The translations under genes and the position numbers were made by a program. Shown piece after piece: positions 213 through 34,844 of a stretch of 53,347 nt of DNA; the stretch's first letter is position 1; each line of letters begins with the position of its first letter. Below the pieces are notes generated by a model. The model searched no databases, was not told the DNA's origin, and saw nothing but the letters and a program-made list of their open reading frames with translations. This DNA is from Nemertoderma westbladi (taxonomy: Eukaryota; Animalia; Xenacoelomorpha): the NCBI GenBank assembly GCA_032718475.1, contig JAUCBJ010002816.1, positions 1-53,347 of the forward strand, in the 5' to 3' direction.

Positions 213-2083
213 CTACGCCCCTCTTGTGGGGCATTCTCTGCCCCCCCCCCCCCCCCCCCCCCCCCACTCGCCACTCCTTACTTCACTACCTCTTACTTCG
301 CTTCTACACCCCTCTCTAGTCGACGCACTATCTCTACTGCGGCTGGGTCTACTTACCCCCGCCTCTCCCTGTGCAACTGCGTGGCCTGGCAGGCTCACGT
401 CGGGTTGACTCACCCCCGCTGCTCCTTGCCTAACTACGTGGCCTTGCAGGCTCCCGTCGGGGTCTCTCACCCCCGCTACTCCCTGCGTACTAACTACGTG
501 GCCTTGCAGGCTCCCGTTGGCCAGACCACCTGTATCTCCTATATCAGTATTAATAGCCCCGTTATCAATATTATTATTTTCTAAATTATTCAAATTATTT
601 GAATTATTCTGTATATTTAAATTTAAATTATTATTCGAATTATTTTGAATATTTGAATTAGAATTATTTTGTACATTTAAATTAATATTAATATTTGGAT
701 TATTTGTATTTAAATTTAAATTACCGGGTAAAGGGTTATTTCCTGCAATGAAAGTTTGGTTAGGGTTGTCTACTACGGTACTATTAATATTAATTTCTTC
801 TAACGTATTATTATTACCCCCGCCCGTATGGTTACACCAGATCTGGTTCTGTCGTCCGGTGCCTGTAAGTGGGGTATTAACAAACGTTTCCATAACTTCT
901 GGCTCCTCGTAAATACTACCCGAGCCAGCCTCACTCTCTGATAGTCCCAACTGCGCCAGTTCTAGTCGGTGCTTCTGCTTGGCCTGATATTGCATAAGTG
1001 CCCTCAACCGGGCATGCATATCATCCCGGATGCGCTTTCCCGCTCTCTCTCTCTCTCTCTATCCTCTCGTAAACTTTGGTCGGCCAACTCTGCCTCCCTC
1101 GTCTCCCGCTCTCTACTCTCGTTCTCTACTTATGCCTATCGCTCTCTATGCTCGTTCTCTACTCTCTCTGCCCTCTCTTTATTCTTTCTCGCCAACTCTC
1201 TCTCTCTTTCTAATAACGCAGTTCCCTCATCCAAGTGCCTCTCTAATTCTTTCTGGTCTAGCGCCGCAATGTCTAGTTGACATGCCAGATCTATCTCTAA
1301 CACCGTTCTTGCTTTCGCGGAGGATGTAGCGGACTTATCGGTCACGACGGACTCCCGTCGCCTCTCTGTCCTACTAATTTTCCCCCGCGTTCTGGGGTTC
1401 TCGCTAACCGACGAGACCGAATCCTTGGGGTTAACCTCGGGTTCGCCCTCGTGCGGATCTGCCCAACCCACTAACTTAATTCCCCTAGCATCCACTAAAT
1501 ACAGCCCTACGTACACCACTTCAGGCTCCATAACCCTGGATCGCCACAGTTCGAATAGTTCGGTGGCGACCCCCCTCGCTCTCTCACTCGCCAGTTCTCC
1601 CTGCCCGAAACGGACTAGATATCTGAAATGTATATTCGACTCACCTAGCCGCAGGCTCAACTTCCCCTGGTTTACCTTCTCTCCCTCTTTGGCTTCCCTC
1701 AATAGTTTATTGGTGGCATTGTAGGCCCGTCGAAGCCGATCGCTGGTCCCGACGTCCTCTTCGCCGACATCTCCTCCTCCTCTCCTGGTTCGGCGTAGTA
1801 CCGGCGGCCCCACCGTCACCGTTCCGGTGGGCCATCCGTCGCCCTCGGCCTGTGGCTGGCCGGCGACTTCGGTACCTCGACCGCCGCCGTGCGTCGACTC
1901 GTCCCTTCCTTGTGATAGACGGCCGCCCTCCGCTTGGGCTGCCGGATCGTCTCTCGTCGACGAATCCGGCGTCGCAGGTCGGTACCATCGCGTCGCGGCC
2001 TCGTGGATCGTTTGGTTGGTATCGTCCGGGGTCTGCGGCGGTGTCCTCTCTCCCTCCGACAATCGTGGTTGTCCTGTGCTCAT
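213..2083 (-). pseudogene. gag: BEL/Pao gag N-terminal region with in-frame stops (~1130-1138) and a frameshift near the (CT)n tract at ~1045-1060
   Basis: ORFs 1136-2083 and 213-1019; coiled coil, Asn-rich tract and three 57-60 bp repeats (GSLQGHVV...) at ~350-525. Confidence 0.65.
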
Positions 2084-2126
2084 CTTGTCTGGCAGTCACA
2101 GTTTCGTGGTAGCTGGTATCTTTCAC

Positions 2127-2744: not shown

Positions 2745-5518
2745 ATGTATGAGAAACACTCGCTCGTCAACTGAAACACACAGTATCTAACGTATGAGAA
2801 ACACTCGCTTGTCCACTGAAACACACAGGCTATAATGAATGAGAAACACTCGCTCGTCAACTGAAACACACAGACTCTAATGTATGAGAAACACTCGCTC
2901 GTCAACTGAAACACACAGACTCTAACGTATGAGAAACACTCACTCGTCCACTGAAACACACAGACTATAATGAATGAGAAACACTCGCTCGGCAACTGAA
3001 ACACACACACTCTAATGTATGAGAAACACTCGCTCGTCCACTGAAACACACAGACTATAATGAATGAGAAACACTCGCTCGTCAACTGAAACACACAGAC
3101 TATAATGAATGAGAAACACTCGCTCATCAACTGAAACACACAGACTCTAACGTATGAGAAACACTCGCTCGTCCACTGAATCACACAGACTATAATGAAT
3201 GAGAAACACTCGCTCGTCAACTGAAACACACAGACTCTAATTTATGAGAAACACTAGCTCGTCAACTGAAACACACAAACTCTAACGTATGAGAAACACT
3301 CGCTCGTCCACTGAAACACACAGACTGTAATGAATGAGAAACACTCGCTCGTCAACTGAAACACACAGACTCTAATGTATGAGAAACACTCGCTCGTCAA
3401 CTGAAACACATAGACTCTATTGTATGAGAAACACTCGCTCGTCAACTGAAACACATAGACTCTAATGTATGAGAAACACTCGCTCGTCAACTGAAACACA
3501 CACACTCTAATGAATGAGAAACACTCGCTCGTCAACTGAAACACAGACTCTAACGTATGAGAAACACTCGTTCGTCAACTGAAACACACAGACTCTTATG
3601 AATGAGAAACACTCGCTCGTCAACTGAAACACACAGACTCTAATGTATGAGAAACACTCGCTCGTCAACTGAAACACACAGCCTCTAATGAATGAGAAAC
3701 ACTCGCTCGTCAACTGAAACACACAGACTATAATTTATGAGAAACACTCGCTCGTCAACTGAAACACAGAATCTAATGTATGAGAAACACTCGCTCGTCA
3801 ACTGAAACACAGACTCTAACGTATGAGAAACACTCGCTCGTCAACTGAAACACAGACTCTAATGTGTGAGAAACACTCGCTCGTCAACTGAAACACAGAC
3901 TCTAATGTATGAGAAACACTGGCTCGTCAATTGAAACACACAGACTCTAATGAATGAGAAACACTCGCTCGTCAACTGAAGCACACAGACTCTAATGAAT
4001 TAGAAACACTCGCTCGTCAACTGAAACACAGACTCTAACGTATGAGAAACACTCTCATACACTATAATTTATGAGAAACACTCGCTCGTCAACTGAAACA
4101 CAGAATCTAATGTATGAGAAACACTCGCTCGTCAACTGAAACACAGACTCTAACGTATGAGAAACACTCGCTCGTCAACTGAAACACAGACTCTAATGTA
4201 TGAGAAACACTCGCTCGTCAACTGAAACACAGACTCTAATGTATGAGAAACACTGGCTCGTCAATTGAAACACACAGACTCTAATGAATGAGAAACACTC
4301 GCTCGTCAACTGAAGCACACAGACTCTAATGAATGAGAAACACTCGCTCGTCAACTGAAACACAGACTCTAACGTATGAGAAACACTCGCTCGTCAACTG
4401 AAACACACAGTCTCTAATGTATGAGAAACACTCGCTCGTCAACTGAAACACACAGAAACACTCGCTCGTCAACTGAAACACAGACTCTAGTGTATGAGAA
4501 ATACTCGCTCGTCAACTGAAACACACAGTCTCTTATATATGAGAAACACTCGCTCATAAACTGAAACAAACAGACTCTAATGTATGAGAAACACTTGCTC
4601 GTCAACTGAAACACACAGACTCTAACGTATGAGAAAAACTCGCTCGTCAACTGAAACACAGACTCTAATGTATAAGAAACACCCGCTCGTCAACTGAAAC
4701 ACAGACTCTAACGTATGAGAAACACTCGATCGTTAACTGAAACACAGACTCTAATGTATGAGAAACACTCGCTCGTCAACTGAAATACATAGACTCTAAT
4801 GTATGAGAAACACTCACTCGTCAACTGAAACACACAGACTCTAATGTATGAGAAACACTCGCTCATCAACTGAAACACTGACTCTAACGTATGAAAAACC
4901 CTCGCTCGTCAACTGAAACACAGACTCTAATGTATGAGAAACACTCGCTCGTCAACTGAAACACAGACTCTAACGTATGAGAAACACTCGCTCGTAAACT
5001 GAAACACAGACTCTAATGTATGAGAAACACTCGCTCGTCAACTGAAACACACAGTCTCTAATGTATGAAAAACACTCGCTCGTCAACCGAAACACACAGA
5101 CTCTAACGTATGAGAAACACTCGCTCGTCAACTGAAAAACACAGACACATACAGACTGTAATGTATGAGAAACACTCGCTCGTCAACTGAAACACAGACT
5201 CTAACCTATGAGAAACACTCGCTCTTCAACTGAAACACACAGACTCTAATGTATGAGAAACACTCGCTCGTCAACTGAAACACAGACACTAACGTATGAG
5301 AAACACTCGCTCGTCAACTGAAACACACAGACTCTAATGTATGAGAAACACTCGCTCTTCAACTGAAACACAGACTCTAACGTATGAGAAAAACCCGCTC
5401 GTCAACTGAAACACAGTCTCTAATGTATGAGAAACACTCGCTCGTCAACTGAAACACAAAGACTCTATTGTATGAGAAACACTCGCTCGTCAACTGAAAG
5501 ACACAGTCTTTAATGTAT
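2745..5518. repeat. 45/43-bp tandem satellite, about 60 copies
   Basis: Unit GAGAAACACTCGCTCGTCAACTGAAACACACAGACTCTAATGTAT, with 43-bp variants lacking one CA. Confidence 0.97.
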
Positions 5519-6063: not shown

Positions 6064-6609
6064 GTAATGTAATGAAATGTAATGTAATGTAATGTAATGT
6101 AACGTAACGTAACGTAACGTAACGCAACGCAACGCAACGCAACGTAACGTAACGTAACGTAACGTAACGTAACGTAACGTAAAGTAACGTAACGCAACGC
6201 AACGCAACGCAACGTAACGTAACGTAACGTAACGTAACGTAACGTAACGTAACGCAACGCAACGTAACGTAACGTATCGTAACGTAACGTAACGTAACGC
6301 AACGCAACGCAACGTAACGTGACGTAACGTAACGTAACGTAACGCAACGTAACGTAACGTAACGTAACGTAACGTAACGTAACGTAACGTAACGTAACGT
6401 AACGTAACGTAACGTAATGTAACGTAACGTAACGTAACGTAACGTAACGTAACGTAACGTAACGTAACGTAACGTAACGTAACGTAACGTAACGTAACGT
6501 AACGTAATGTAATGCAATGTAATGTAATGTAATGTAATGTAATGTAATGTAATGTAATGTAATGTAATGTAATGTAATGTAATGTAATGTAATGTAATGT
6601 AATGTAATG
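6064..6609. repeat. Compound pentanucleotide microsatellite (TAATG)n/(TAACG)n/(CAACG)n, left part
   Basis: Read directly; interrupted at 6610 by the LTR. Confidence 0.98.
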
Positions 6610-8741
6610 TGTTAAACGAACTACCCCGGCCTAACCAATAAAGACACAAAACTGCTCTATTTACTAGATGGGGCAATCAGGAGCGTATAATTACTAATGT
6701 ATGGTTTCAGGTACGGAAAACCACTACTTACCGTTGGATGGCGCTAATCTGCCGTCCGCTAATATATTTTACTTAATTTATACGACTCCTTCTAAATTCT
6801 CGTTCCTTTCTCTACCAATTACTCGATAGAGAGCTAACTGTTCGAATATATGAGCCACGCGGGAATAACCAAAAAATAAACCCGAATCGGCTCCCTAAGC
6901 TGACTTAAAACGAGTGTGAGAGATTTTACACTCAGAGTGTATTCTATAGCCTAATATTACTGTAAATTTGCGCTTACAACTACGTCCTTTCTAATCGCAT
7001 CTAATCGCAATACTGGGGTTCCCTAACGGAATGTGTGAATGTGAGAATATTTAAATAATCGAAAATCGGTACGGCAATTATTTCGGGACTCAAACTTATC
7101 TGCGGCTGGCTTTAGGCCAACAATTTACTGATGCGCGTTGCGTACTGTACTACGATGTGAATTTTGTCCACTAATTCAAATAACCGCCCAGCGTGAATAG
7201 TGTACGGTACTCTAAAATTATTACCTTAACTACCCTCCGCTATGCAGCGTACAAATTCTTAATTTTACTAATTAATTTCAGTCACAAATATGTAACGGCG
7301 TACTAAATACTAAGTATTCCAGAATGCGCAATTCTAAATTATTACGCAACGGGTCACACTAGCAACAGCCTAAGATACCGTATTATTTTCGACCTAATCA
7401 GAAATTAATTACAGTAAGCTAAGAAATAGAAATCAATCAAAGGGAAAGAGCGCCTATCCAAGCATTCGTGATTCATTAGGCACACTTTAGTAACGCACCA
7501 ATCAGCATAACAACAATCGCAATCTACAGTTTAGCTAGCAATTCACAACTCGCAATTCGCAACGTAAAGGACGCAGATCTCTCCCGGCTACGTCTAGGCT
7601 TCCTAACAAACCCAATTCCTGTCCCCCTAATACTACAAAAGAGAGACAAAACCTGGATCATCAGCCCCTAATTACTGAACCGGCGTACCTGACCCACTCT
7701 ACGCTGCAAACTTGCGCGCGCAATAGTAATCCCCCCAATGTTACTTGTCTTTGAATCCTCCGCACTCCCGTCGTCGCTAACCCCCCGATGCGCCCGCCGC
7801 GCTTACCGGTACCCTAGCCCTCCATCAGAATGAGTAGCTACCGTAGCGGCACATGCAAATCACAAAAGTCTGACAGTCTGAGAAATCCCGTAGGATTATT
7901 GTCGAAAGGAATCACATAGAACCATTTACTAAAGGGTAGAAATCATAGTTCCAACTTGTAATTAACAGCGATCATTGAGATTGATTGAGAAACACAAACA
8001 AGAATCAAACAGAAATTGCAAATTAGCGAATCATTGCAAGAAAATCAAAAGGGCAGTAATTTACACAGAAAAACTAAGCATCGAATAATAGTTGAAGGTG
8101 AGCTGTGTGGGGTGTGTGACTAAGCAGAATGTGAGATAGGTAACAATGGAAGTAGACCAATTTATAGGTGATTTGAGAAGGGTGATGCAATCGATCTCTC
8201 ATTGGCTCCCCAATCCGAGCTAACATCAGACCAACCTGGAAGCAGTTAGGCCAATAAGAGAGCCGGATTGTGGGCCTATAGCTCCCTGAAATCGTAAATT
8301 GCCACCATATAAGGTAATTTTCCCGATGCTTAATTTGGCGGTACTAATAATATCATGCACAAATATAAATTTAGCGCAATTATAGAGAAATTAAAACCAA
8401 TAGCTAGCCTCATCAAGGCTAATAACGGCAAGCCCAGATCCAGGGTCCAACAAGGACTTGCTACCCTGGAACTATCTACTTATATCCTATTAAAAAACTA
8501 CATAGGTAGGGCTACATACTATACAAAATGGATGAGTTCAAAATATATGGGCGTTTCAACTTCCTTATCTAAATATCATTGCGCGTTATGCCTTATCTAA
8601 ATAATTATACTGCATCACGGACTAATATATGATACTATATAATGGACTAATATATTATACTGTATAATGGACTAACATTATTATACTGTATAACGGACTA
8701 ATATATTACGTAATGTAGGTACAGCGCCATATACCGTAACA
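6610..8741 (-). repeat. 3' LTR (2132 bp)
   Basis: Near-identical to 22523-24431 (about 20 substitutions by eye); internal ~27-bp tandem repeats at ~8615-8710. Confidence 0.97.
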
Positions 8742-8752
8742 CCGCTCCAAGG
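8742..8752 (-). other. Weak polypurine-tract position (CCTTGGAGCGG|TGTTAC)
   Basis: Short G-rich stretch abutting the 3' LTR on the minus strand. Confidence 0.45.
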
Positions 8753-9244
8753 GAAATCATGCAATGTTTCCCTCCAATTGTAGAAGAGTGTAAGGCGATG
8801 TATACAAAATAAAATAACTCTCCTTCAAATAATCTAAATATCTTGATACTATACTATTTACAAATATTGCTATAGATATTGCATAATGAATTACATACAA
8901 ATTAAATTTACAAATATTATCTCTCTCAATGTTAACGATTATTACATACAAATTAAATTTACAAAAATACTGTTTCTCATTCGTTCTACATAATGATTAC
9001 TACATACAAATTAAATTTACAAAATACTTTCGAATTATAAAAATTTTGCTAGGGTAGGTGAAAGGAGTAAGCCAAACCCGCATGTTTGTCTCCCCAATCA
9101 CCTCCTTCGCCTCTCTCATAATATAAATCCAAATCAGTGCGACTAGTGTATATGAGTCAAGTCGGATATTTACAAATGCTACAATATACATCAGAGCGAC
9201 GATGATGTATATATCTAGAGTCTGTCGCCCCGTGATATGATGCA

Positions 9245-12200
9245 TTACTGACCCGCTCCTGGGTTCTTCGGGCTCGCTCCTCTCTTTCGCCCCCTACCCA
9301 GATACACCAATCGTCCTCCAGTTGACTCTGTTGACGTGGTCCATAAGGCGTCACTCCCCGGAACCGGCGACGATGTTCCCTGAGCTCTGACAGATTCCCG
9401 GCTAGTGCTTCGTCCTCGGCCTCGTCCCAATTGTCGTGCTCCTGTGGTCGCTTCCGCCAACTCTTCCTTTTGCAATTGCACGCGCGCCTTCTCCGACGCA
9501 CCCTGCGCCTTGCGCTACAATCGCTGAGCCTCTATAATCGAGTGATAGTGGTCGTCCTTGATTTGACGCTTGTCTTGGACCTCTCCTCCTGGTTCCTTCC
9601 GTGAGCCTTGAGCTCCAACGGTCGTCGTTGTGGGCGCTGCGGTTCGCTGTTCCTCGATCCTTTGAGCGGTCAATGACCCCACTGGTACGTGAGTCAACAG
9701 GAATTCGTTGCGGTATTGAATAGCCGCCATCCTCCAATCTCCTCGCGCGTGCACCACTTTCATAGTTTCCGAAAACAAACCCTTTGTAATACGGTCGCAA
9801 ATAGCAACAAAGTTCCAAGTGTACTTGTTGTCCATATTTAGTTGTCTGAAGTATTCCCGAACGACTATGACTCCAGTGTTCTGTGGAAGATCTTGAGCAG
9901 TTAGGATGAGCTCCTGATATTGTGGTAGCGACTGTAGATATGGTTCGTACGCAACATGTGACGGGTCTACCGCCCAAAGTCCATATCCCGCCTTAAATGG
10001 TAACCAACGCATCTGCGCTTGAATGTGGTAGTCAGCCACACTCTCCCACTTATCTAGCATCTCCCGAAGTAGGTTAGCGCTATGGTTCTGGAAGGAATCG
10101 TCTCGCAGTTGGCATCTCGCGCTACGATGTCCCTTTACTCCACAATATCCACATTGAGAAATGAAAACGGTGCACGTATGAAACGAATGGTCGGTCTCAT
10201 TGCACCAACGGCAGACCTTATGCGCCGCCTCCACTACAGTGTCGCACGATTTTTGATTGTGCCTTGTGCTGCCGCACAACTTGCACCTACGCGCTTGTGG
10301 AAACCAGGCCCTCTCGTATATGAGGTCTCCAATCGGTTTCGCACTTCCTTCTTTCCCAATGTCTAATACGATGTTGTCCTCTCCAGTTAAAGGTTGTCGA
10401 TCCGGAACAAAGTAAACATCCTCGCCCTTGTCCTCTATCTCCAATATTTCCTCCCGCGTTCGTTCAATAGCAAAATAAATAATAAAAATAAAATCGATAG
10501 CAAAATGTGCTATGAAGCCCATACCAGTCTTGGCAGAGTTGGGATACTCCCTATAAATTCCCATGTCTTGTGCCCATAGCAACAATAGCTTGGTGTCGAC
10601 AAACGGTCTCGGCAATCTATCTTCTAAATCAGTCATGGCGTTGAAGTCACTCTCCAAATCACTCTGGACTCCCGATCCCACCTTGACGTAATCTTGGCTA
10701 AGAATCGCCTCTCTAACCTTCTTGGGTAGCATCCTGGTGTCGATACGCTCCGCTCCGTGCATACCTCCTCGCCTGCATACCTCCAAAATCTGTTCCCTAG
10801 GATCCTTCCCCTTCCGATAATGTGTCGTGATTATGGGCTCCGGTCTCTCTCTATCTGCCCTTACGCGCATAAACACATGAGTCACACCATCGGTCGCGCG
10901 AATTTGAATGCACTTACTAGTCAAGCATTCCTGATGAGACCCTCCTTCATTGTCGTAAAACATCACTCTCCAATCTTGTAGTGATTCCTCCATTTTCCTC
11001 CACTGACGCTGAATCTCGTCGGATGGGGTCCACATGATCGATAGCCTTGTGGTCGTCATATCGGGTGTAAGATCCCTTTCTCCTCAGCCACACCTGGTCT
11101 ACCTCCTCGTCATCTGGGAATGTAACCACCGCGACCCATACCTTGATGTACTTTTCTAACCATCCAAATAACTTGCTCTCTTTTCCCGGAGCTCCAATCT
11201 TATCCAATGTGTCGTAGTCTGTGATCTGCATCGGGACATCACGCAAGAACTTCGCGCATAAAACGTCCCATAGACAGTCGACGTTCCAATGATCCGACAT
11301 CCTCACCATCGGCAAGAATCTAATCGCTTCTCGCGACTCCGGGTGATCTACCAATATCGCAGGTTCGCTACCGTCGGAATAATACACCGGTCGGGGTTGA
11401 GATACGGCCTGTGGAACAAATCCGGTCACTCTCCTCGTCTCCTCTTGATGTCTATCCGCGGTCTTATTATATTCCGCTATCCGCGCTTCGAATAATTGTT
11501 TCGCCTTCGCCGCTCGCTCCTCCTGCCGCAACGCGTCTATGTCGTCCTGATGCTCAGGCGTGAGTGTTCTCGCTCGATGAGGCAAAGTAATGTAGTCCAG
11601 GGACTCGAGAGCTCCAAACCCGCAGGTTTGGTACCCGAGTCCCGTGCCGCTTCGCGCCGCGCCTCTAGGTCCTTGTAGGCTCGGTACAGCGAAATGGCCG
11701 CTGCTGTCTCTATCAAACTGGGTGTCGAACAGGGTTTAATCTCCGTATACGGATCTAAAGTCGTAACGGTCGGCGTAATGGGTCTTGGAGGTCGCTTTCC
11801 GCTGAAGTCGATACTGATCATCGGGTTGCTCATTGGGTAACCTCCCTCGTTATATCTAAGGAACTGATGAGCTTGGCATCGCGTTAATATCGGTTCGGGA
11901 TGTTGCTCGTCCAATCGGTCGGGAATCGCCACGTCTTGTTTGTTCATGCATTCACCACATTTGTAGAACAACTTGTATACACTGAAGACCTTCGACGTCT
12001 CTTGATCCTCGCTGCGAGTCCTCCGATACAGATGCATTCCGTCGAACTGATCTCGGACTGCAGGTAGCGGCTCTTCGTGTCGTAAATACATATTCATGTG
12101 GTACAGCCGCGCAATCTCCTCATCCGGGTCTGCGCTAATGTTGCACACGTCTAACGCGAAATCGTAGGGATACCGAGTGCGATACTCTTTCCGCAAAACT

Positions 12201-12403
12201 TCCATATGGTCCCCCAACGCTCTCATTCTTTCCCTCCTTAATTCTTTATCATAAGCGGGTTTATATTTCCCATTTAGCTCCATCACCGACCTCCCGTGGT
12301 AGTAAACATTCGAATCCTTACATCCCGGTCGGGCAAATGGCAGCTCCGCCTCCTCTCTGGCAGTAAATCCTCTCCGCGGTTGCGCTCTAATTTCCTTCTC
12401 CAT
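9245..12403 (-). pseudogene. Accessory ORF3 of element 2: unknown N-terminal region, DEDDy (WRN/RNase D-like) 3'-5' exonuclease and three CCHC knuckles; two probable frameshifts and one in-frame TAG
   Basis: Overlapping ORFs 11537-12403, 10947-11585 and 9515-11059; after TAG (9515-9517) the frame stays open to 9245. Motifs FYDNEG (ExoI), LPKKVREAILSQDYVKVGSGVQSD (ExoII), FVDT, GMGFIA; knuckles CKLC-H-C, CRWC-H-C, CGYC-H-C. Confidence 0.8.
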
Positions 12404-13099
12404 TATGCGCCGCGTATATACATATATATATCCCAATAAGGTTCTGTTACGTAACTAATTACACTGTGGGTAAATCAGTTAGATGTCGCCGAAGGACAGA
12501 CCTCTTGAGCCCCCCCCCCCCCCCCCCCCCCCGCCTTACAGCAGTTCAGGTTCGACTCTCTAGATCCCGTCTCATTCCTAACTATCCTCTAACATATTCC
12601 CATGCATAGCGCAAAAACTTCGGAGATAAACTGGCCGTGACCAACTCACTTTTTGATGCCCAAACTACTCCCATTACTTGTACTAAACTACAGTAGTTAG
12701 AAAGGACCATAATCTCAATGCTCGACTATACCAAACCCACAGGTTTGATAATCGAACATCACACTTCACTGCAAACTACTAAGTGGGGTCCGTGTACGCC
12801 CTGATGCTACTAACCTTTAGCACCTTAGTTGTACTGCTGGCACCAATCTGTGGCAGTTGCTAAACTCAATTTACACTCCTACGTAATATAGCCGTCACCA
12901 TGGTTTCTAAATGCTATTTTCCTGGCTTCACGACTTTTCAAATTACTGTATATCTATAGACGAATTCTAAAACGTGTCTATACACAGCGTCTGGAATTGT
13001 CTTGTGTTCACTTCTAATTTTTAAAATTTTTTAATTTTCCAAAATTTTGAAAATAAAATTTTATTTGGGGAATGCATACGAAGTGAGTTGCGTCCAACA

Positions 13100-14458
13100 C
13101 TAATTTTTGTTAGAGGCAGGAGACAAATTATAATCTCCTGTCTCGATGCGTGTCTCCTCTAATAACACGATATCTTGGACCGGTCGGTCCAAGGTGTGTA
13201 AACCATTAGTTTTACACTTCTTTGGGTGCGGACACTTGCACCTAATTTTCACAGTGACTGTGCGCACTATGTTTTGCACGTCTGGGTGTGTGTGCAAGAT
13301 GACACCGGTTTCCCAATACTTTCTCTTGACAATCGGTTCGGTTATCAATACGTAATCTCCCCTTTGGAGACTCTGAACCGTTTTGTACCACTTTGTTCTG
13401 GTGGATATGGTGGGAAGATAGTATTCCCGCCAATATTCCCAGAATGTGTACGCTACGAATTGTGTCATTTTCCAGCTCTTACGACTATATAGGTCGGCAC
13501 TAATGGGATCTGATGTCGGCACAAGAAATGCTGGACTCTGCATTAGCAAATGATTCGGCGTTAATGCAACACCGTCTGGCAACATAGCTATCGGCCTCGA
13601 GTTTAGTGTATGCTCGATTTCGATGAAAGCTGTGACCAGTTCGTCATCGGTAAGTTGTATATTTACAGGCAACGTTTTGGCAATGGCCTGTTTTACAGAG
13701 CGAACTAAACGCTCCCAACTTCCTCCTCTCCAAGGACTTTCTGGAGTATTAAATCTCCATTCTATTCTTTGCGGCAAAAGTGCTGCAGAAATTTCCTTAT
13801 TCCGTGCCGCTTTGTGAGCCGCGTTTAACTCGCTGTTCCCTCCGACAAAGTTTGTACCCTTATCGGAGTAGAACGCCTTTACTAGTCCTCTTCTGGCCAT
13901 AAATCTCTTTAAGGCCAGGAGCAGAGATTTGGTCGACATGTCTGCCACACGCTCAATGTGTATGGCTCTACTAGCCATACATGTCAGTAGCAGGCCCCAT
14001 CGTTTGTGGGTCAGCCGTCCACTCTTTGCCTCAATCGGACCAAAACAATCCACCCCTGTGTTCGTAAAGGGTGGGTCATATGCCTGCACTCTCGCTTCCG
14101 GGAGTTCAGCCATCTCCTGTTCCAATACTCTGGCGTTCACCCTCTTGCAAACCAGACAGGCGTCATACATAGTGCCTACTGCCCTGCTTGGCTGCAATAG
14201 AATGAATCGCTGTCTCGCTGCCGACAAACAGTGTAACTTTCCCGCATGATGCAACCTCTTGTGTATATCCCATAGAATCGCTCTTTGCAATTCTATTGGG
14301 TGACTAGGGATTATCACTGGGAACCTAAACTGTGAGTTTATGTCGACAGTCTGGATTTTCGATCTATGACAAATTAAACCCTTATGGATTAATGGACTAA
14401 ATTTAATAGAGAACTGGTCGTTGAGCCGATAATAGATGGAATTCTTTTGGGAAGGCAC
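13100..14458 (-). pseudogene. pol: BEL/Pao integrase, separated from RT/RH by frameshifts (linker fragment 14503-14736)
   Basis: HKRLHH...CLVC zinc finger; DDE triad in VDCFGP, SDKGTNF, GGSWERLV; LNSRP, LTPNHLL and FW..W..EY BEL motifs. Confidence 0.93.
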
Positions 14459-14714
14459 ACATTTGATAATGCTTCAAATGCTTTAATTCCGCTTGATCAA
14501 TTTCATCCTCTGTCAGAGGTTGTTTCGCTCTGAATTCGCTCACTATTAGTGCTCATTTGTTCTCCCAAATGTTTCGAATGTTTTATACAAAGGTACGAAA
14601 TGTATCGGCTTAACCACGCAGTTCTTTTACAAATTGTCAGCCAAGAGGCAGACGAATTTAGTAATTTGTCATAAATACTACATGGCTCTAATGCCAGCGA
14701 CGGTTGTCCGCTAA

Positions 14715-17573
14715 TTAATGGAAGTTTCGAATCCAAACCAAAGGCTCCATTTTGTCGGTCATTTTCATTCCATCACTTACCAATTGTGACTCTGGTTTAG
14801 TCTGTAAGGGTGGTTTTATGTCATAACTTACCCTTCCGGACCTAGTACTCACGTAAGTCTGTTGGTCTGACAGGTCTCTAGGCCGCTCCAATGACTCTTC
14901 AGGCCGCTCCAATGACTCTTCAGGCCGCTCCAATGACTTGAGTTTGGCTTTAGACTTTGACTTAGAGACTTTCTCCACCTTGACTTCTGCATCTTCAGGC
15001 ATCGGATTGGTCACTATCTTTAGTCGCTCTGGCCAATGTTCCTGTGTCCTCGTTAGAAAATCAGGCCCATGCAACCAAAACTCCTGCGACTCTTCCTGAC
15101 AGAATTCCGCCGGCATTGCACCTCTCGAAGTTATGTCGGCCGGGTTCAACACTCCCGGACAATGTCTCCATTGTTCCTTCGTCGAAAAGTCAACGATCTG
15201 AGCGCCTCTGTTGGCCACAAATGTCTTTAGTGCAATATTGTCGGCCGCAATGTATACTAACACTAAGGATGCGTCCGTCCAATAGAATAAGGTCAATGTC
15301 GTGTCTAACTCCTCTGTTATCTGCCTACTTACCTCGACTGAAACTACAGCCGCCTGTAACTCTGCACGAGGGACAGTCATGTATTTGACCGGCATTGTCT
15401 TTGATCTAGAAGTCACAAAAGCCGTCTCAAATTTATCCTGACTTACCTCTCGGCGAAGGTAGGCTACCATACCAAAGCCGGTGTCACTTGCGTCACTAAA
15501 TAAATGGAGTTCGAGATCAGCTGGGAATACCAGCTGATTCGGAAAGTAGGAGCGGGGTACATCTATGTTTTTCAATAGATGCAACTCGGCTTCCCACTCT
15601 CTCCACTGCTTTGTATGTATAGGAGATATTGGTTCGTCCCACTCTAGGTCGGACAACCAAATTTTCCTCATGCACGCTCGTGCCTGTAATATTACTGGAC
15701 TGATAAAGTTCATCGGGTCAAATAGTCTACTTAATGTCGATAAGCAAATTCTCTTAGTCAAAACTTTATCTGGGCTACTGGGCTCAAATCTAACTCTTAC
15801 CTGGAATTTATCCGTGTTCGGATTCCAAGCGAGTCCCAGTACTCGCGCCATGGGGATGGGTTCTACCCCCAATTCTATGTCTCCGCTCCCGCGATCCTTT
15901 ACCGGGAACGACTCTAATAGGGCCTCCGAGTTCGTAGTGAACTTGGTCAGAGGAAATCCCCCTGTAGCCAAGCACTCTTGCAGGCCGTGAGCCACTTCTA
16001 TGGCTTGTTCTGCCGCGTCCTTGGACACCAATCCGTCGTCCATATAGAAGTTTCTCAAGATGGACTCGATTACTTCTACTGGATACTTACCAATCTGGGC
16101 TGTTGCCGTTTTCTTTAGAACAAACAGCGTGCCGTTTGGACTATCGCGGGCGCCAAATATCCTAACGTACATTTGGTATGTAACCACTGGGCCGGATATG
16201 TCTTCATTCTCGTACCAGAGAAATCGAAGGCTATCCTGGTCTGCCTTACAGGCTCTTACCTGGTGGAACATCGCCTCGATGTCACAAGTAAACACGAATC
16301 GCCGCTGTCTAAAACGCAACAGTATTCCTATCAAATAATTATTCAGGTTGGGACCATCCATCAACTCTGAATTCAGGGACATACCTCTATAGACTGCTGC
16401 GCAGTCGTTGACTACTCGGACTTTGTCAGGCTTGTCAGGGTGAGTCACATAGTGGTGTGGGAGGTAATAAGTCTGGTCTGTCACTAAGACAGGGTCCTCT
16501 ACCTTCCCAGCAAATCCCTTGGCGAAATAGTTGTTGATCTGGGCGCAATACTTCTCCCTAATGTCCGGATTCTTTAGCAACCGAGCCCTTACTCCGTTCA
16601 ATCTTTTTAAGGCTAAGCTGTAGTTGTTCTCCAACTTAGGAGGTTGTCGACGCCACAACATTCCAACTTCAAAATGTCCAGTCGGTAGCAAACGTATGGT
16701 GTCTTCCATCATCTCCAGCGACCGTTTCTCATCAGTGGACATGGCTAGGTCATATCCACCGGGTTCCATTGCGTCCCTATCCAGCCATTCGACGGTTCTA
16801 GCTCCTGTCTCGAGGTCCTGGCGTATCAATTCCTTCTGTAGCTCCTCCTCACTGTATTGGAAAATGTCGAGGTCGCGATATTTAGCCACCTGACCCTCCA
16901 CTATGTCGGTATAAGTCAAAACGTTACTCAGATAAGTAGCGTGGGCCGCTGAACCAGACCCACGGGTCTGATAACAGTAGTCCTTGGGTTCACTATCTGT
17001 CCGGTCGTTGTGAAGTGGTTCCGACAACCTAACATTATCGGGAATCAACTCCTCGTCTGACTCGCTAAAGTCACTATAGTGGTCAATACAGGTTCTCCTA
17101 AACTCGTCTATGTCTGGTAGTTCTACTAACGGTGGTTGAGTTATAGGCTGTAATTCGTCGTATCTGTCTATTGGCTTGTCGCCACCTGTAAACTCATAAG
17201 ACATGGGTACTCTTGTATACCAACCTAGTATAGTCCTATGGGCATGTGGTCCATTGACATGCGGCTCAGCTGGTCTCGTTTCCCATATTTGGTGTGCGAT
17301 CAGCTGTTCTGCACCAATCAACATAGAAACATTCCTATAACCTACCTGGTGTCTCGGTATCCTGAGCTTGTCAAAATACTCCTGTGCTATGGGACTCATC
17401 GGCGGCACCTTACCTAACTGCCTGCCGAATCCCTTCATAGCTAGACACTTAAATCCGTCCAATGGCAAAGGTCTTCGTTCTTGTCGAGTGTGTTGGTCTC
17501 TCGGAAGTAGGGAGTCTAGTTCTACCGAAATTCTGTGTCCCTTGAGGTCTCCTACTCCATGCATAGACTTCAA
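14715..17573 (-). pseudogene. pol: BEL/Pao protease C-terminal part, reverse transcriptase and RNase H
   Basis: YLPHH, KVRVVNDCAA, SLNSELMDGP, DIEAMFHQV, FGARDSP, NFYMDD; RNase H FSDAS, PRAELQAA, WTDAS, NPADITSRG; 21-bp triple repeat at ~14880-14938. Confidence 0.95.
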
Positions 17574-17597
17574 CTCTATTTGGATTTCCTCGGCGTC

Positions 17598-20500
17598 CTA
17601 GAAGCTAGAAACGGCTCTCGCCACTTCCTCGTCGATATACGATAATGTGGACGCAGTGTCCAACATCACATATATTCGCTTAGATCCCTTATCGCCAGTA
17701 AGTTTCACCGGAATCACGCTAAATATTTCCGACGTGGCCGATGATAAATACGTCCGCGCGCTGGTCGATGAACTATCCGCGGTGAAACCTTGGCAGGTCA
17801 CCTCTCTTGCGCTCAACTCGCCATCCTCGTCCGACGAACCTGGTTGATAACCATCGTCCTGAATGCCGGTATACGTATTTCTTCTTATCGATACGGGTTC
17901 TTCGCTCCCCTTCCTGTGAGGATTTCGCTGTAAGTAACGGTCCGTTGGGGTGTGAAAATCCGCATGTAGCAACTTGTGATGTAGTCTGCCGCATTCCATA
18001 CATCCGTCCTTACTGTTCGGGCACTGCCGCCGTACATGACCTGGCGCAAGACATGCCCAACAGGTGTCCAACGTCCGCACTTGAACTCTTCTCTGTTCCG
18101 AATTTAATTCTTTGAACCGTCTGCAACTATCTAACTTATGGTCGTCAGATCTTACCTCCTTTAGTAAACAGTATTGGCAACCTACAAATCCATCCGGCAA
18201 CTCCTGTTGCTTTAACCTAGGTCTATCTAACCGCTCACCTGACCATACTCGCGAGTCTGATCTAAAGGCTGGGGTAATCGAATTATATCTGTCTACTGAG
18301 TTAAATGTCACAGTGGTCCTGTCATCGTCAAAACTTACCATAGACTTACCGGTAACAGGTTTAGACTCTCTCATATTCTCCTCTGAGAAGTTTGATTTCA
18401 TCTCTGCTACTGCGTCTGTGGCTATCATGTCATGAATATGCTGAAGTGTCAACACCTCACCTTGACCATCCAACTTATTCTCTAATTTGCGCCATTTCTG
18501 TCGGTAACGCATGTTTAAACGTCTTATTACGCTCTTTAAATCTTCGGCGTGATCACCATGATGAGGTAGATTCACCATCCTCAAGATGTCCAATGCGTTC
18601 GAAATAGCGTTCGCTAAGTTCAACAGCTCTAACGGAGTTGTAATCCTTCTGCCCTTACCCAAGTCTTCCACTATCGACTGTGCCATCTTGGTTTTATTCC
18701 CGTAGATGTCGCTAAGCGTCTTCATTGCCAACTCAAATGCCCTTTCATTGCCGACGAAGTTATCAGCAATGGCTCTAGGTTCTCGATGGAGCATCTGAAG
18801 CAAATAGTTGAACTTCTCGTTGGGAGTAAAGGTGCTGTTGGTTAGCTGCTCGTCGACATAGGTTTTAAACGTCCTCCAATGCTTATGGTTGCCCATAAAC
18901 TTCTGGGGTTGTTGCGTCGGCAGTCCTTGCCTAGCAGCAAACTTACCTATGTCCCTAAGGATTGCGTCGTTCCGGGTTAACAAATGGTTTAGTTCCGCAG
19001 GGTTGTTAAGTCTGGTCCTTTCCCGGGGATTGAGACTTACCTGCTCCGCGTCCGTCCTTCTTTCCTTATAGTTTCGGGACTTCTGACGTCTCATGTCTTC
19101 CTCTTCATCACTTGATTCGGTGTCATTCCTTAGCGCTTGCGATGGTTTGCGCACCGAGGCCCTGACCCAGGCGTCCTGAATAAACTTTTCGGCTGAATTT
19201 TCGAAATCGGGATTATGGATATTTGGGACAGGCGTCCTTACCAGAGGTCTATGTGGTATAGTCTCCTCCGATATGCGTACTCGTTGACTAGGTTGGACTT
19301 TATCTAACTCAGGCCTGCTAGGATTAGAATTACTTCTTACCTGGGCTGCTTCCTTTAACCGTAGGTTGCTAAGCATGTCCGTTATAGGTTGGATGTGCGG
19401 CGATATAGCTTGCGCTAAACTAGCACTTAACTCATCCCTCGTAATAAATTCCTGGCTAGGGTTCTGTTGTATAGTCGGCTCTATCTGAGTAATCCGCTGT
19501 CTCTCATATGATCCCTCTTCCGGTTTAACCCGGAAGTTCTCCGTCGAACTGGGTCGGCGCTCCGTCCGCGTATTCCAAACCCGCGGGTTCGGTTCGCCCA
19601 ATACTCGGCCCGTCAGAGTTTCTCCTCTAAACTCTTCGTTGTCTCGTTCGGTATGTAGTGGTGCGGTGCGCTGATACGCTGGATTCTGCGCGATAGGTGA
19701 AGCACTAATACCAATTGGCGTGCGATATGTAGAGAACGGTTTAGCGATCCGTGTACTCGTAATAGCTGGACCGTGTATAGGAATTCTGATCGTCGTCGAC
19801 TCGCGTATGGTCGGAGTTCTCGCTTCCTGTTCGGCCTTCTGCAGTGCGAACAGTTCTCGCAACTCAGTCCCTACACTTGCCCCACATTCTTCGATCATTC
19901 GCATCCCCTTCTCGGCGATTTCATTCGCCTTCCTGGTCCGTTCCTCGCTCTCTAGGTTTAATCTCGCACTTTCCAACTGCGCCAGTTTACGTTCTTCTTC
20001 TTCCCTCGCTCGTCTCGCTGCGCTCTCTTCTTCCACACGCGCCTTTTCTTCATACAACGCTTGTCGCTCTTTCTCGATCTCGAGTTCGCGTTCCTTGCAT
20101 TCGCGTTCAAGTTCGAGTTCGCGTTCCTTCTGTTCGCGTTCGAGCTGGAGTTCGCGTTCTTTCTGTTCGTGTTCAAGTTGGAGTTCGCGTTCCTTCTGTT
20201 CGCGTTCCGCTCGCTCACGCTTACCCTATCTTCCAACTCGCGCAACTTTGCGTCTAACTTACGTGTTCGCTCCCTTTCCCGCTCGGCTTCCTTCCGTGCT
20301 TCCGATGCACGCAAAACTTCCGCCTGTTGTTCGTCCAATCGGCGTCTTCTCTCCTCCGCCGAATTGTGAGAAACAAGGGATCTAGCACATATAACTTTAC
20401 CTCGCGCGTGACTAACCTGGGAATTGCCACTGCCTCTAGATGCGTCGTCGGGTGGAGTTAACGTTCTCAGTTGGATATTCTCCGTCGTCGGTAGCATCTG

Positions 20501-21367
20501 ACCCGGTACCACCACTCCACTCTGCATCAGCCAGCTGGTAACTTCCCGCTGATAACGGCGCTCCTCCTTATCTTGCGTCTCTTCTCGCTCCACTAAATCT
20601 CTCGACTCTGCGTCACTCACCTGAGTCGCCTGCGCTTGTGATGCCCATAGCAGCCAGTTCTCCGTCCTAACTCGTCGGAATCGCTCCGATAACGTGCGGT
20701 GCTCCAACAAGGCTGCTAAAACCCTGTCGTAAATCCTCGTCGCCACGTCGTTCGACTGAGACTCTACTGCCTTCTTCGCTAGGACTGCAAGCTCCTCCGT
20801 CTGGTTGAATAACGCTGAGTTGTATCCTCTTCTAATCTCTACTAACCCTTCCCTTCCGATGTTCGCTGAGTCGGCTAACATCTTCCTTACCTTGTCCGCC
20901 GTCCGGGTTATATGTCCGGCATGCGCGCGAAGTTTTTTCTTTATCGCGATATCAAGTTCTCTCTCGCTTACCTGACTCACACTTGGTGGACTTGAAGGAT
21001 TATTTCTGGAACTATGGGTACTCCTTTTAGCCGCTGGGACCACGGCACTTACCATACCCACAGGTCTGGAAACCGGGCTCCGGGCTCTCGCTTCTGCTAC
21101 ACTACCCTCCCTATCACTCACCTCTGGTTGGGTTGCTGTACAATCCTTCCTTACAGTAGCGGTAGGGGATCCTAATACTATTACCTGAGGTGGTTCTTCT
21201 TCCTCACTAGTTACTGTCTCGTCCTCCTGTTCACTTACGTCAGCATCACTCGCTGCGTCATCATAGTCGGCATTGTCGTCAACAGTAATATTAACGCTAT
21301 CGTCAGTCGGCGGTTCTGCCGCCGTCTCATAGCTGTCCTCTAGTGCCTCCTTCTCTGAGGCACTCAT
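17598..21367 (-). pseudogene. gag: BEL/Pao gag and aspartic protease active site; frameshifts at ~20225 and ~17610
   Basis: EREQKERELQL coiled-coil repeats; KFMGNHKHWRTF capsid-like region; three Cys/His knuckles ending CMECGRLHHKLLH; protease motif VMLDTAS. Confidence 0.93.
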
Positions 21368-22522
21368 AGTCTAAATAATATTTGCCTTCCGGCAAAAATA
21401 TATCTCGCAAAAGTTCGAGATATATATATATATAATTTAATCGAAAATACGATCAAATTATTTGTCAAATATCCAATTGTCCAAAATGTCAAAATAAATT
21501 CGCAATGCAATATTGTGAATTTAATGGTGTATAGTTATAGCAAATACCGGTATAATATTTAAACAAAATATTATTATATAGTTATTATATAGTATTTAAA
21601 TACCGGTATGACACAAATAATTTTTTGAATCTAATACAAAATATTCAAAATAAACTTGCCACCCGAATATTTCTAATTTTACATAGATAACTCTAATCCA
21701 CGCAATTTTAATTTCAAATATTATATGTATCCACTAGCGCGTGGCTACATCTTCGGGTTGCGACTCTCTCTCTCTCTCTAACTCGAGCGATTCAAAAACC
21801 CATGGTCGGCTAAACCTAACTATCCTAACTAATAAATTGAGTTCACCTTCGCAGTTAAACAACCGATAATTTTTTACTGCTTCCACAAACACAATGGTGC
21901 CAACATAACAACTAACCTTGTTTGCTGTGAGATTCCACGTCCGCGTCCAAAGTTTCAGTCCTTTCGCTGATTGCAAACCGAACCCGCAGACCCACACGAA
22001 CCCCAAACTCAGAAGCTCCGTCTTGCCATGTATCTCCAGATGGTATAAAATAACTAAGCGGTTATCCAACATACCGGTACAAAACTCTAGATTTTATTAC
22101 AAAATAATTTTGACCAAAACTGAATTCTCACAAACCTAGCTAAAAATTTCAAAAAACTTACTAATTACGGCCTGCCCTAACGGCCTAAGGAACCGCTGTA
22201 TTTGTGATTAGTAAACGCACTACCGTATATCCACTGTACGCAATACAGTAAGTAAAACAGTACACCAACCTAACAGCCTAATGAATACTGTGTGCGGTAC
22301 AGCAAAACAAATGTATTTTCTACTTGTATGCAGTAACAGCAATCAGCCTAATGTACTACTGTACTATTGTACGCGACCAGTGAATACAGTAATCTAACTT
22401 AACAGCCTAAAGAATACACTTGATGTTCTACCGTACGCAGTACAGTGCCTAATACAGTAATCTAATTAGTACTTTCTGACTTTACTGTACGCAGTACAGC
22501 AAAACACAAAAACGTCCTTTAC

Positions 22523-24431
22523 TGTTAAACGAACTACCCCAGCCTAACCAATAAAGACACAAAACTGCTCTATTTACTAGACGGGGCAATCAGGAGCGTA
22601 TTACTACTAATGTATGGTTTCAGGTACGGAAAACCACTACTTACCGTTGGATGGCGCTAATCTGCCGTCCGCTAATATATTTTACTAAATTTCTACGACT
22701 CCTTCTAAATTCTCGTTCCTTTCTCTACCAATTACTCGATAGAGAGCTAACTGTTCGAATATATGAGCCACGCGGGAATAACCAAAACAATAAACCCGAA
22801 TCGGCTCCCTAAGCTGACTTAAAACGAGTGTGAGAGATTTTACACTCAGAGTGTATTCTATAGCCTAATATTACTGTAAATTTGCGCTTACAACTACGTC
22901 CTTTCTAATCGCATCTAATCGCAATACTGGGGTTCCCTAACGGAATGTGTGAATGTGAGAATATTTAAATAATCGAAAATCGGTACGGCAATTATTTCGG
23001 GACTCAAACTTATCTGCGGCTGGCTTTAGGCCAACAATTTACTGATGCGCGTTGCGTACTGTACTACGATGTGAATTTTGTCCGCTAATTCAAATAACCG
23101 CCCAGCGTGAATAGTGTACGGTACTCTAAAATTATTACCTTAACTACCCTCCGCTATGCAGCGTACAAATTCTTAATTTTACTAATTAATTTCAGTCACA
23201 AATATGTAACGGCGTACTAATTACTAAGTATTCCAGAATGCGCAATTCTAAATTATTACGCAACGGGTCACACTAGCAACAGCCTAAGATACCGTATTAT
23301 TTTCGACCTAATCAGAAATTAATTACAGTAAGCTAAGAAATAGAAATCAATCAAAGGGAAAGAGCGCCTATCCAAGCATTCGTGATTAATTAGGCAAACT
23401 TTAGTAACGCACCAATCAGCATAACATAACAACAATCGCAATCTACAGTTTAGCTAGCAATTCACAACTCGCAATTCGCAACGTAAAGGACGCAGATCTC
23501 TCCCGGCTACGTCTAGGCTTCCTAACTAACCCAATTCCTGTCCCCCTAATACTACAAAATAGAGACAAAACCTGGATCATCAGCCCCTAATTACTAAACC
23601 GGCGTACCTGACCCACTCTACGCTGCAAACTTGCGCGCGCAATAGTAATCCCCCCAATGTTACTTGTCTTTGAATCCTCCGCACTCCCGTCGTCGCTAAC
23701 CCCCCGATGCGCCCGCCGCACTTACCAGTACCCTAGCCCTCCATCAGAATGAGTAGCTACCATAGCGGCACATGCAAATCACAAAAGTCTGACAGTCTGA
23801 GAAATCCCGTAGGATTATTGTCGAAAGGAATCACATAGAACAATTTACTAAAGGGTAGAAATCATAGTTCCAACTTGTAATTAACAGCGATCATTGAGAT
23901 TGATTGAGAAACACAAACAAGAATCAAACAGAAATTGCAAATTAGCGAATCATTGCAAGAAAATCAAAAGGGCAGTAATTTACACAGAAAAACTAAGCAT
24001 CGAATAATAGTTGAAGGTGAGCTGTGTGGGGTGTGTGACTAAGCAGAATGTGAGATAGGTAACAATGGAAGTAGGCCAATTTATAGGTGATAGCTAGCCT
24101 CATCAAGGCTAATAACGGCAAGCCCAGATCCAGGGTCCAACAAGGACTTGCTACCCTGGAACTATCTACTTATATCCTATTACAAAACTACATAGGTAGG
24201 GCTACATACTATACAAAATGGATGAGTTCAAAATATATGGGCATTTCAACTTCCTTATCTAAATATCATTGCGCGTTATGCCTTATCTAAATAATTATAC
24301 TGCATCACGGACTAATATATGATACTATATAATGGACTAATATATTATAATGTATAATGGACTAACATTATTATACTGTATAACGGACTAATATATTACG
24401 TAATGTAGGTACAGCGCCATATACCGTAACA
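22523..24431 (-). repeat. 5' LTR (1909 bp) with a ~229-bp deletion relative to the 3' LTR
   Basis: Alignment by eye; the segment matching 8172-8400 is missing at ~24090. Confidence 0.97.
24037..24087 (-). promoter_or_regulatory. Putative LTR core promoter (TATAAA plus initiator-like CACATTC/TTAGTC)
   Basis: CCTATAAATT on the minus strand at ~24078-24087, with initiator-like motifs ~30-45 nt downstream; same site at ~8160 in the 3' LTR. Confidence 0.45.
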
Positions 24432-24890
24432 TAATGTAATGTAATGTAATGTAATGTAATGTAATGTAATGTAATGTAATGTAATGTAATGTAATGTAAT
24501 GTAATGTAATGTAATGTAATATAATGTAATGTAATGTAATGTAATGTAATGTAATGTAATGTAATGTATTGTAATGTAATGTAATGTAATGTAATGTAAT
24601 GTAATGTAATGTAATGTAATGTAATGTAATGTAATGTAATGTAATGTAATGTAATGTAATGTAATGTAATGTAATGTAATGTAATGTAATGTAATGTAAT
24701 GTAATGTAATGTAATGTAATGTAATGTAATGTAATGTAATGTAATGTAATGTAATGTAATGTAATGTAATGTAATGTAATGTAATGTAATGTAATGTAAT
24801 GTAATGTAATGTAATGTAATGTAATGTAATGTAATGTAATGTAATGTAATGTAATGCAATGTAATGTAATGTAATGTAATGTAATGTAAT
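24432..24890. repeat. (TAATG)n microsatellite, right part
   Basis: Almost pure array, read directly. Confidence 0.98.
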
Positions 24891-25960: not shown

Positions 25961-26740
25961 ATTCGTTAATTAAGTTGATTACGTATTACGTAGTTGATTA
26001 AGTTGTATAAAACAGCATTTTGTCTACAGTCCTTTATTGGAAATTAATTATTTTCTAATATAAGATTTTTTATTAGATTTATCATGATTTATAAGAGCAT
26101 TTTCAACCTGCCTCTTAAAAGGATAGTAATATATAGTTTTTAATTAGTTCAATAGATTTGCTTTAAGAAATGTGTTTTTAATTGATCTAAACGTAATTAA
26201 CTTATTGAAATGCCCAGTCTCATAGCTCCCTCCTTCCTTGGCATGCTTGCCTAGCTTGGAAGGGGAACCAGTCCAACCACAAACCTCACCTCTACTCAAC
26301 GGCAGCATTGTAATGAGCCAGACTAATAAGTCAGCTTGTTTATTGTTTTTAGCTTACAAAATGATTGGCCGAGTACTTAATCATGATTCTTTAGTATAAT
26401 TAGCGGATCTAGGACACTTCCCCCCCGGACACTTCCCCCCCGGACACTTCCCCCCCGCCCAAGTAGGACACTTCCCCCCCGGACACTTCCCCCCCCCGCC
26501 CAAGTAGGACACTTCCCCCCCCCGCACACTTCCCCCCGCCCAAGTAGGACACTTCCCCCCCAGTTAAAGTGTTAAAATTAATCTGGGTGCATCAAAGCAA
26601 TAAACAAAAGTTAAAGATGGTTACAGGACAAGTTGTATCTAGTTTTTTCAAAATTATAAAAGAAACATTTTTATAGTCAACTTTTGTTTGTTTTTCTTTT
26701 AATTCCTTTAATTCTTTTAATTACTTTTAATTTCTTTTAA

Positions 26741-26930
26741 TTGGGGGCTGCCGCCCCCAAACCCCCGCTTCTTTTGTTGGGGGCTACCGCCCCCAAACCC
26801 CCGCTTCTTTTCTTGGGTGCTGCCGCCCCCAAACCCCGGCTTCTTTTGTTAGGGGCTACCGCCCCCAAACCCCCGCTTCTTTTCTTGGGGCCTGCCGCCC
26901 CCAAACCCCCGCTTCTTTTCTTGGGGGTTA
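26741..26930. repeat. 36-bp tandem repeat, about 5 copies, each with a GGGGG-CT(G/A)CCG-CCCCC hairpin
   Basis: Read directly. Confidence 0.9.
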
Positions 26931-27002
26931 TCGCCCATTCATTGTGTCAAGTACAATGCACACATCTCCAACCAGACACTATATAACATTGGAGGTGTCT
27001 CA

Positions 27003-34840: not shown

Positions 34841-34844
34841 TTAC

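Follow-up and report, generated by a model that had tools for sequence, protein, structure and literature searches.

Third genes of the Belpaoviridae, which lie between pol and the 3' LTR, are described as env-like (PMC8742986). Within the 53,347-nucleotide stretch of Nemertoderma westbladi DNA analysed here (contig JAUCBJ010002816.1 of assembly GCA_032718475.1; hereafter, the window), the same slot of a BEL/Pao retrotransposon is occupied by an extra gene that lacks envelope features, which raises the question of what this gene encodes and what it does for the element. We propose, with a probability of roughly 0.4, that the best explanation is a constrained third gene encoding a knuckle-guided DEDDy exoribonuclease, which would trim the small silencing RNAs of the host.

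The extra gene resides in a complete LTR retrotransposon of 17.8 kb on the minus strand at 6610-24431 (Table 1). By its sequence, the element is BEL/Pao (Belpaoviridae), in agreement with the initial annotation, as indicated by its Pfam domains and by the order gag, RT, RNase H, and integrase, with YMDD in RT. The element is longer than the 4.2-10 kb given by the ICTV for the family, as are its LTRs (1.9-2.1 kb) relative to the stated 0.2-1.2 kb (PMC8742986). The two LTRs differ by 21 substitutions over 1903 aligned bases (K2P 0.011), and the 229 bp missing from the 5' LTR lie at 8171-8399 of the 3' LTR, set against 24090, next to TATAAA at 24085. The copy in the window is considered decayed, since its gag-pol carries a frame change and stop codons; RT-RNase H and integrase are parted at about 14470-14715, where stops and frame breaks occur. 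A long (TAATG)n array surrounds the insertion (6070-6609 and 24432-24890), of which the left part grades into (TAACG)n; insertion in (TAATG)n could reflect target preference or chance, between which a single insertion cannot distinguish.

Table 1. Features of the retrotransposon and of its extra gene, in positions of the window.
Feature	Position	Strand	Basis or remark
Target-site duplication TAATG	6605..6609; second copy 24432-24436		within (TAATG)n microsatellite
3' LTR	6610..8741	-	2132 bp, TG...CA
In-frame stop (9515-9517) and R/G-rich tail to stop at 9245	9245..9517	-	stop private to window copy
Conserved C-terminal domain behind knuckles	9905..10069	-	homologue motif FE.fAD.G..T...GF
Three CX2CX4HX4C zinc knuckles	10112..10285	-	motif pattern, shuffles
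Acidic linker remnant	10286..10464	-	homologue comparison
AT-rich filler at deletion	10465..10505		41 bp; reads 'FAID...'
Predicted DEDDy 3'-5' exonuclease domain, to helix after ExoII	10506..11035	-	candidate ExoI D/E 10954-10946; ExoII D 10660-10658
N-terminal half, about 450 aa, two frames with break near 11590	11037..12403	-	first ATG 12403 (presumed start)
Poly-G run (sense strand)	12510..12532	-	about 110 bp upstream of extra gene
Integrase	13103..14473	-	Integrase_H2C2; DUF5641, E 1.2e-17
pol: RT and RNase H	14718..17597	-	YMDD by eye; Peptidase_A17, E 3.7e-39
gag region	17601..21370	-	two overlapping frames, 21370-19961 and 20225-17601; DUF1759 (E 3.8e-9), Gag knuckle
5' LTR	22523..24431	-	1909 bp, TG...CA; without 229 bp found in 3' LTR

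Elsewhere in the window, a DNA transposon bounded by terminal inverted repeats of 69 bp (35638-39160), which we take to be Sola-like, carries a broken transposase frame (38845-36246, minus strand; Pfam DUF7869, E 3.7e-10), and the stretches 26410-28095 and 30080-34900 hold a small element whose inverted ends are tandemly repeated and a large minisatellite with a 41-bp unit. At 213-2095 (minus strand), two open frames (281 and 319 aa) have no Pfam match, adjoin a tandem array of 43-45 bp at about 2750-5500, and are possibly another mobile element. Two frames are uninterrupted: a 347-aa O-methyltransferase frame on the plus strand at 41143-42186 (Methyltransf_2, E 2.5e-30, with a weak match to the dimerisation domain) and a 303-aa SAM methyltransferase frame on the minus strand at 47839-48750, presumably COQ3/UbiG-like.

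Other copies of the family were sought as contigs of four public runs compared with 8750-13200, in which X1-X3 come from organism A and X4, a guessed RNA run with a depth of 3-5, from organism B; X2 and X3 stem from the same sample, and the window itself may derive from one of the runs. The extra gene, which is the third gene after pol and lies on the minus strand between integrase (ending at 13103) and the 3' LTR, consists of three open frames that overlap (12454-11540, 11735-10950, and 11083-9518), followed by one stop and a tail to 9245. Its extent had initially been given as 9245..11059. A small indel near 11036 distinguishes the window copy from the others, so that the nuclease frame is a continuation of the upstream frames; 11059 was therefore rejected as the gene start, and the gene opens about 1.3 kb further upstream, at approximately 12403, and is about twice as long. 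No known domain was found in the N-terminal half (no Pfam or PDB match). In X1-X3, a joint with good support omits 328 bases of this half (11929-12256) and has one letter between its sides; the net loss is 109 codons in frame and, as judged from the contigs, marks a subfamily in which the N-terminal part is shorter.

An envelope protein was rejected for this slot. Outside the filler, no segment reaches transmembrane strength (the best 19-residue hydropathy is 0.7 and 1.0 in the upstream frames, and 2.1 only across the filler), and none of the three frames contains an R-x-[KR]-R furin site, which bears out the earlier remark that fusion-protein features are missing. The three zinc knuckles (10285-10244, 10213-10172, and 10153-10112) likewise hold as first described: among 20,000 shuffles, none contains two or more knuckles and two contain one. 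The conserved domain behind them is recovered by a profile built from homologues only, with an E of 0.0036 among 542 window pieces. The R/G-rich tail that had been noted is present (89 aa, among them 12 R and 14 G) but sits behind the in-frame stop.

The identity of the protein is best approached through its relatives. An exhaustive phmmer search among 1.84 billion proteins yielded six homologues (P0001-P0006; E 9e-12 to 8.5e-4), which are unannotated, one being called 'hypothetical protein'. Their best phmmer stretches lie over the knuckles, and all six possess a nuclease-like N-terminal part. The layout common to them consists of a DEDDy domain, an acidic or low-complexity linker, three CCHC knuckles, and the conserved C-terminal domain. 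A profile of the six homologues alone, searched against the PDB, places EXD2 (6k17) first with an E of 1.1e-7, followed by the knuckles of Lin28 and nucleocapsid proteins. The AF2 model of P0006, computed from a 7-row alignment that included the window protein, has a mean pLDDT of 53, with the nuclease core mostly at 60-78. Its Foldseek search retrieves EXD2 with an E of 3.8e-7, and VIA-align returns WRN (Z 14.1), RNase D (13.8), and Nibbler (13.3) with an rmsd of 3.2-3.4 over 174-186 residues. The matches listed by a fold search of the BFVD include 3'-5' exonucleases of giant viruses and phages, and none of those listed is a named retroelement protein. It is thus very probable that the domain adopts a DEDDy fold of the EXD2/WRN/Nibbler/RNase D group, a prediction modelled for the homologue and transferred to the window by alignment; this sustains the initial reading of a WRN/EXD2/RNase D-type nuclease with three knuckles.

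Direct searches were less productive. Neither Pfam nor NCBIfam reports an exonuclease match for the window protein or for the six homologues, and no HRDC domain is found by Pfam in the window pieces or the homologues, where the knuckles stand instead. A phmmer search of the window nuclease domain alone against the PDB returned nothing, and word-indexed protein searches for near, longer, and shorter relatives gave no match. No match to the window protein or the homologues was obtained in metagenome and viral contigs, and tblastn against plasmids gave chance matches only. The single-sequence fold of the window protein (pLDDT 32) and the Foldseek search of that model were uninformative.

Fold membership leaves more than one activity to be considered, since WRN, RNase D, Pol I, and Nibbler tie at Z 13-14 against the P0006 model. 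EXD1 and Egalitarian are catalytically dead RNA binders of the same fold group. The presence of DNases (WRN and Pol I) and of such inactive members in the group, with tied Z-scores, weighs against the exoribonuclease reading. An enzyme acting on DNA, which would trim or proofread cDNA ends before integration, is decidedly improbable: the tie of WRN and Pol I exonucleases at the head of the structural list speaks for it, as does the proposal that the DEDDy domain of Dada transposases processes cleaved 3' ends (PMC3706591, in the part available), while the extra gene is separate from pol and fused to neither RT nor integrase, and the proteins that best match the knuckles bind RNA (Lin28, nucleocapsid, and TbRND).

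The catalytic residues address a further alternative, in which the nuclease fold would be inactive or secondary and the protein would serve as an RNA-binding adaptor for transport or packaging, similar to Egalitarian or EXD1. Egalitarian-BicD RNA complexes, one of them with I-factor RNA, rank 15-26 in the Foldseek search of the P0006 model. P0001 has lost the ExoI glutamate and the ExoII aspartate and carries a duplication of the whole knuckle and C-terminal block, which suggests that this module may serve alone. On the other side, all four acidic residues are kept in 4/6 homologues, and ExoIII is represented by Y-x3-D in 4/6 of these remote proteins and by C-x3-D in a fifth. The window itself retains candidate D, E, and D residues. 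Its ExoII block (LPKKV...YVKVGSGVQSD, 10729-10658), correctly recognised at the outset, scores 39.5 bits against the homologue-only profile, with shuffles at or below 8.1 bits and an hhalign probability of 97%, a score that is partly circular because the window protein had been used to select the homologues; the ExoII aspartate is aligned by 4/4 methods, and D stands there in 5/6 homologues. The ExoI candidate FYDNE is present as described (10960-10946), but the block alone reaches -0.1 and 0.2 bits, values attained by 255 and 281 of 2000 shuffles, and is not significant. Its D and E are matched to ExoI of the homologues by 3/3 MAFFT modes, but not by hmmalign, and the motif pattern, which was defined post hoc, occurs in 159 of 20,000 shuffles. 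ExoI of the window is accordingly plausible as a candidate, and its unusual form is a further point for the adaptor, which we nevertheless regard as unlikely. The family is assigned to the DEDDy nucleases, and the window copy is regarded as a truncated member, because of the fold and profile matches of the homologues, the ExoII match, and the presence of ExoIII in the homologues.

ExoIII is where the window copy departs from its relatives, no match to the ExoIII profile being found in the 542 window pieces. The initial annotation suspected that this motif had been damaged by a deletion; the deletion is real and private to this copy (between 10464 and 10506), but the motif is missing altogether. 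The letters FAID, which had been taken as the end of a shortened ExoIII stretch, lie wholly inside the filler, which has 17% GC against 46-47% in its flanks and repeats 10 of its own bases. The bin 10476-10499 has zero depth in X1-X3, where loose ends fall at 10464 and 10503/10506, and FAID was rejected as an ExoIII remnant on the strength of filler composition and depth. One X4 contig continues 519 bases beyond 10464 without further match to the window, which suggests, if that contig is colinear, that at least about 170 codons were removed. A loss of this size is consistent with the longer span between the G-x-G helix and the first knuckle in the homologues, i.e., 209-335 residues in 5/6 and 133 in P0001, compared with 80 in the window. 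The deletion removed ExoIII together with most of the linker, probably 170 residues or more. In addition to the deletion, the stop at 9515-9517 and the frame break near 11036 are private to the window copy, and a loose end at 11590 likely marks a fourth such lesion. The extra gene of the window copy is therefore broken by frameshifts, a private stop, and a deletion, whereas intact sister copies presumably keep ExoIII and would be catalytic.

The sister copies also bear on whether the gene belongs to the element at all. An unrelated nested insertion, or a host fragment carried passively without function for the element, is extremely improbable and largely refuted, although no single contig runs from pol to the 3' LTR. 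In X1-X3, 2396, 4744, and 3675 contigs are matched (their summed depth does not equal copy number) and 30/30 bins of 8750-13200 are covered, so the region is present in other copies; its absence from them is what would have refuted the initial annotation. The cover is even over both gene borders, overlapping contigs tie the gene to both sides, and no joint skipping the gene occurs among the 15 of 22 joints examined. For the nuclease block (10506-11034), 40 of 42 differences were listed, and 37 were classed once three had been dropped, of which two fall at the frame break and one lies beyond the block. Synonymous changes account for 31 of the 37, where a share of 0.29 would be expected for an equal proportion of transitions (binomial p 8e-12; crude omega 0.08), counted as sites and not as independent events; the remaining two frames give 3 and 8 of 37. 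All 28 sites that vary among the other copies are synonymous, and the six replacements all fall among the nine sites at which the window alone differs. None of the 37 listed differences touches the codons of the candidate ExoI D and E or of the ExoII D, which also argues against the adaptor. Outside the block, 21 window-alone differences (10 synonymous and 11 not) form part of about 490 places; they were left unused as a selection test because they mostly reflect post-insertion decay and are a partial set.

From the pattern of substitution, the nuclease frame is clearly maintained as a protein under strong purifying selection. A nested unrelated insertion was rejected, as the sister copies cover all of the gene and the sites variable among them are synonymous throughout. 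We hold it as almost certain that the extra gene is a real and constrained gene of a high-copy BEL/Pao family.

The preferred reading, a knuckle-guided exoribonuclease that trims host small RNAs, may be envisaged as follows. The knuckles would bind a single-stranded RNA some bases short of the 3' end, and a two-metal site would remove nucleotides in the 3'-to-5' direction, as in trypanosome RNase D. The target would be a host piRNA or siRNA, the trimming of which would weaken silencing of the element. The knuckle-guided mode is favoured because the closest solved layout is that of T. brucei RNase D (TbRND). In that enzyme, the CCHC fingers contact RNA upstream of its 3' end, enhance RNA binding, and strongly increase cleavage (PMC7797062, as far as available). 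RNA rather than DNA is the likely substrate. Host small RNAs as the target are somewhat short of an even chance; two observations favour them: DEDDy genes turn up repeatedly in classes of elements that replicate in unrelated ways, and Nibbler acts at the ends of miRNA and piRNA, trimming the former and modulating the length of the latter (accessible text of PMC4406673 and PMC4760310). The recurrence across unrelated classes would fit a job that is independent of the replication mechanism. Conversely, the strong constraint would fit a cis-acting role in replication at least as well, because a diffusible suppressor benefits all copies. Among the roles first suggested, i.e., primer trimming, proofreading, and small-RNA interference, proofreading is the least favoured.

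A cis-acting role is at the heart of a further alternative, which we rate as rather unlikely, in which the same enzyme would process the element's own RNA, trimming either the 3' end of the genomic RNA or a minus-strand primer of non-standard type so as to leave a paired 3'-OH. It is served by the constraint just mentioned, by the likeness of the knuckles to nucleocapsid knuckles, and by the region behind the 5' LTR. The standard BEL/Pao primer site is 18 nt long and complementary to tRNA-Arg or tRNA-Gly (PMC8742986), whereas in the window copy, which may be mutated here, the 5' LTR is followed by no TGG start. The first 10 nt after the 5' LTR (22513-22522) exactly complement 23492-23483 and 7573-7564, inside both LTRs; this match, read in the window copy, is post hoc and weakly beyond chance, as 81 of 5000 shuffles reach 10 nt, and in the window sequence no TATA box or AATAAA adjoins it. 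The leader folds into a long hairpin (z -4.0), and the 10-nt complement together with the hairpin makes self-priming or an LTR-leader stem possible. Rfam returned nothing at gathering score and one sub-threshold match near the primer site. A further consideration against such a role is that most BEL/Pao elements replicate without a gene of this kind, exonucleases having no mention in the available part of PMC3118150.

At the level of the whole protein family, two readings may tentatively be set out together, although we are doubtful of them: element-borne proteins with an exonuclease and triple knuckles would be counter-defence enzymes that mis-trim or destroy host piRNAs, or the lineage would have dropped tRNA priming and the nuclease would make the primer. 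In the former case, BEL/Pao elements, and perhaps other classes, would encode their own Nibbler-like nuclease, and the protein family would be widespread and unnamed. Should the substrate of the preferred trimming enzyme be piRNA or siRNA, the gene would be a case in animals of a transposon encoding an enzyme that suppresses small-RNA silencing, for which the literature search gave general papers only.

In comparison with known systems, the extra gene in BEL/Pao is apparently undescribed, while the capture of DEDDy domains by transposons has precedent in the consulted parts of PMC5408684 and PMC3706591. No published BEL/Pao exonuclease was found in the open literature, with Repbase, supplements, and most subscription journals outside the scope of the search; a term search of the available part of PMC12440569 returned nothing, and PMC6338049, as far as accessible, cites the rotifer case alone. 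This case comprises the DEDDy ORF3 of the bdelloid rotifer gypsy-like elements Juno and Vesta, which is common with Athena/Terminons and for which activity is not demonstrated (Rodriguez et al. 2017, PMC5408684, text available in part). The rotifer half of the precedent first cited is thereby borne out, whereas the nematode half is not, the word being absent from the available text of PMC5408684. According to the same text, the rotifer ORF3 and the gene described here are both separate third genes for a DEDDy exonuclease in the env position without a transmembrane segment; here, however, the host is BEL/Pao, the gene is far longer, and it adds three CCHC knuckles and a conserved C-terminal domain, whereas the rotifer ORF3s, compared by description, have no knuckles and only a Cys-His-Cys motif in two. 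Strong purifying selection on an enzyme gene in a high-copy family indicates that a nuclease can pay for the element, a point beyond the reach of the rotifer study. In Dada DNA transposons, a DEDDy exonuclease has likewise been captured, but the domain lies in frame inside the DDE transposase, according to the part of PMC3706591 available, and not in a separate gene as in this retroelement.

Among cellular enzymes, EXD2 (6k17) is the best profile and Foldseek match, and WRN, RNase D, and Nibbler (Mut-7) are the top structural ties, although the identity is just 12-20% and no donor gene is claimed. To our knowledge, none of EXD2, the WRN exonuclease, and Nibbler has the knuckle layout. That layout is met in TbRND (PDB 7C42 and 7C45), in which a DEDD exonuclease is likewise followed by tandem CCHC fingers, and which is matched both by the family profile, through the knuckles, and by fold (Foldseek E 1.4e-4; VIA Z 12.6). 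TbRND is a mitochondrial enzyme of the cell that has four fingers and whose linker is short (PMC7797062, in the portion consulted), whereas the protein described here combines three knuckles with a long acidic linker and has additional N- and C-terminal parts; the shared layout is likely convergent. Since the layout matches that of TbRND, whose mechanism is solved, we propose that the activity is directly testable on the natural homologues.
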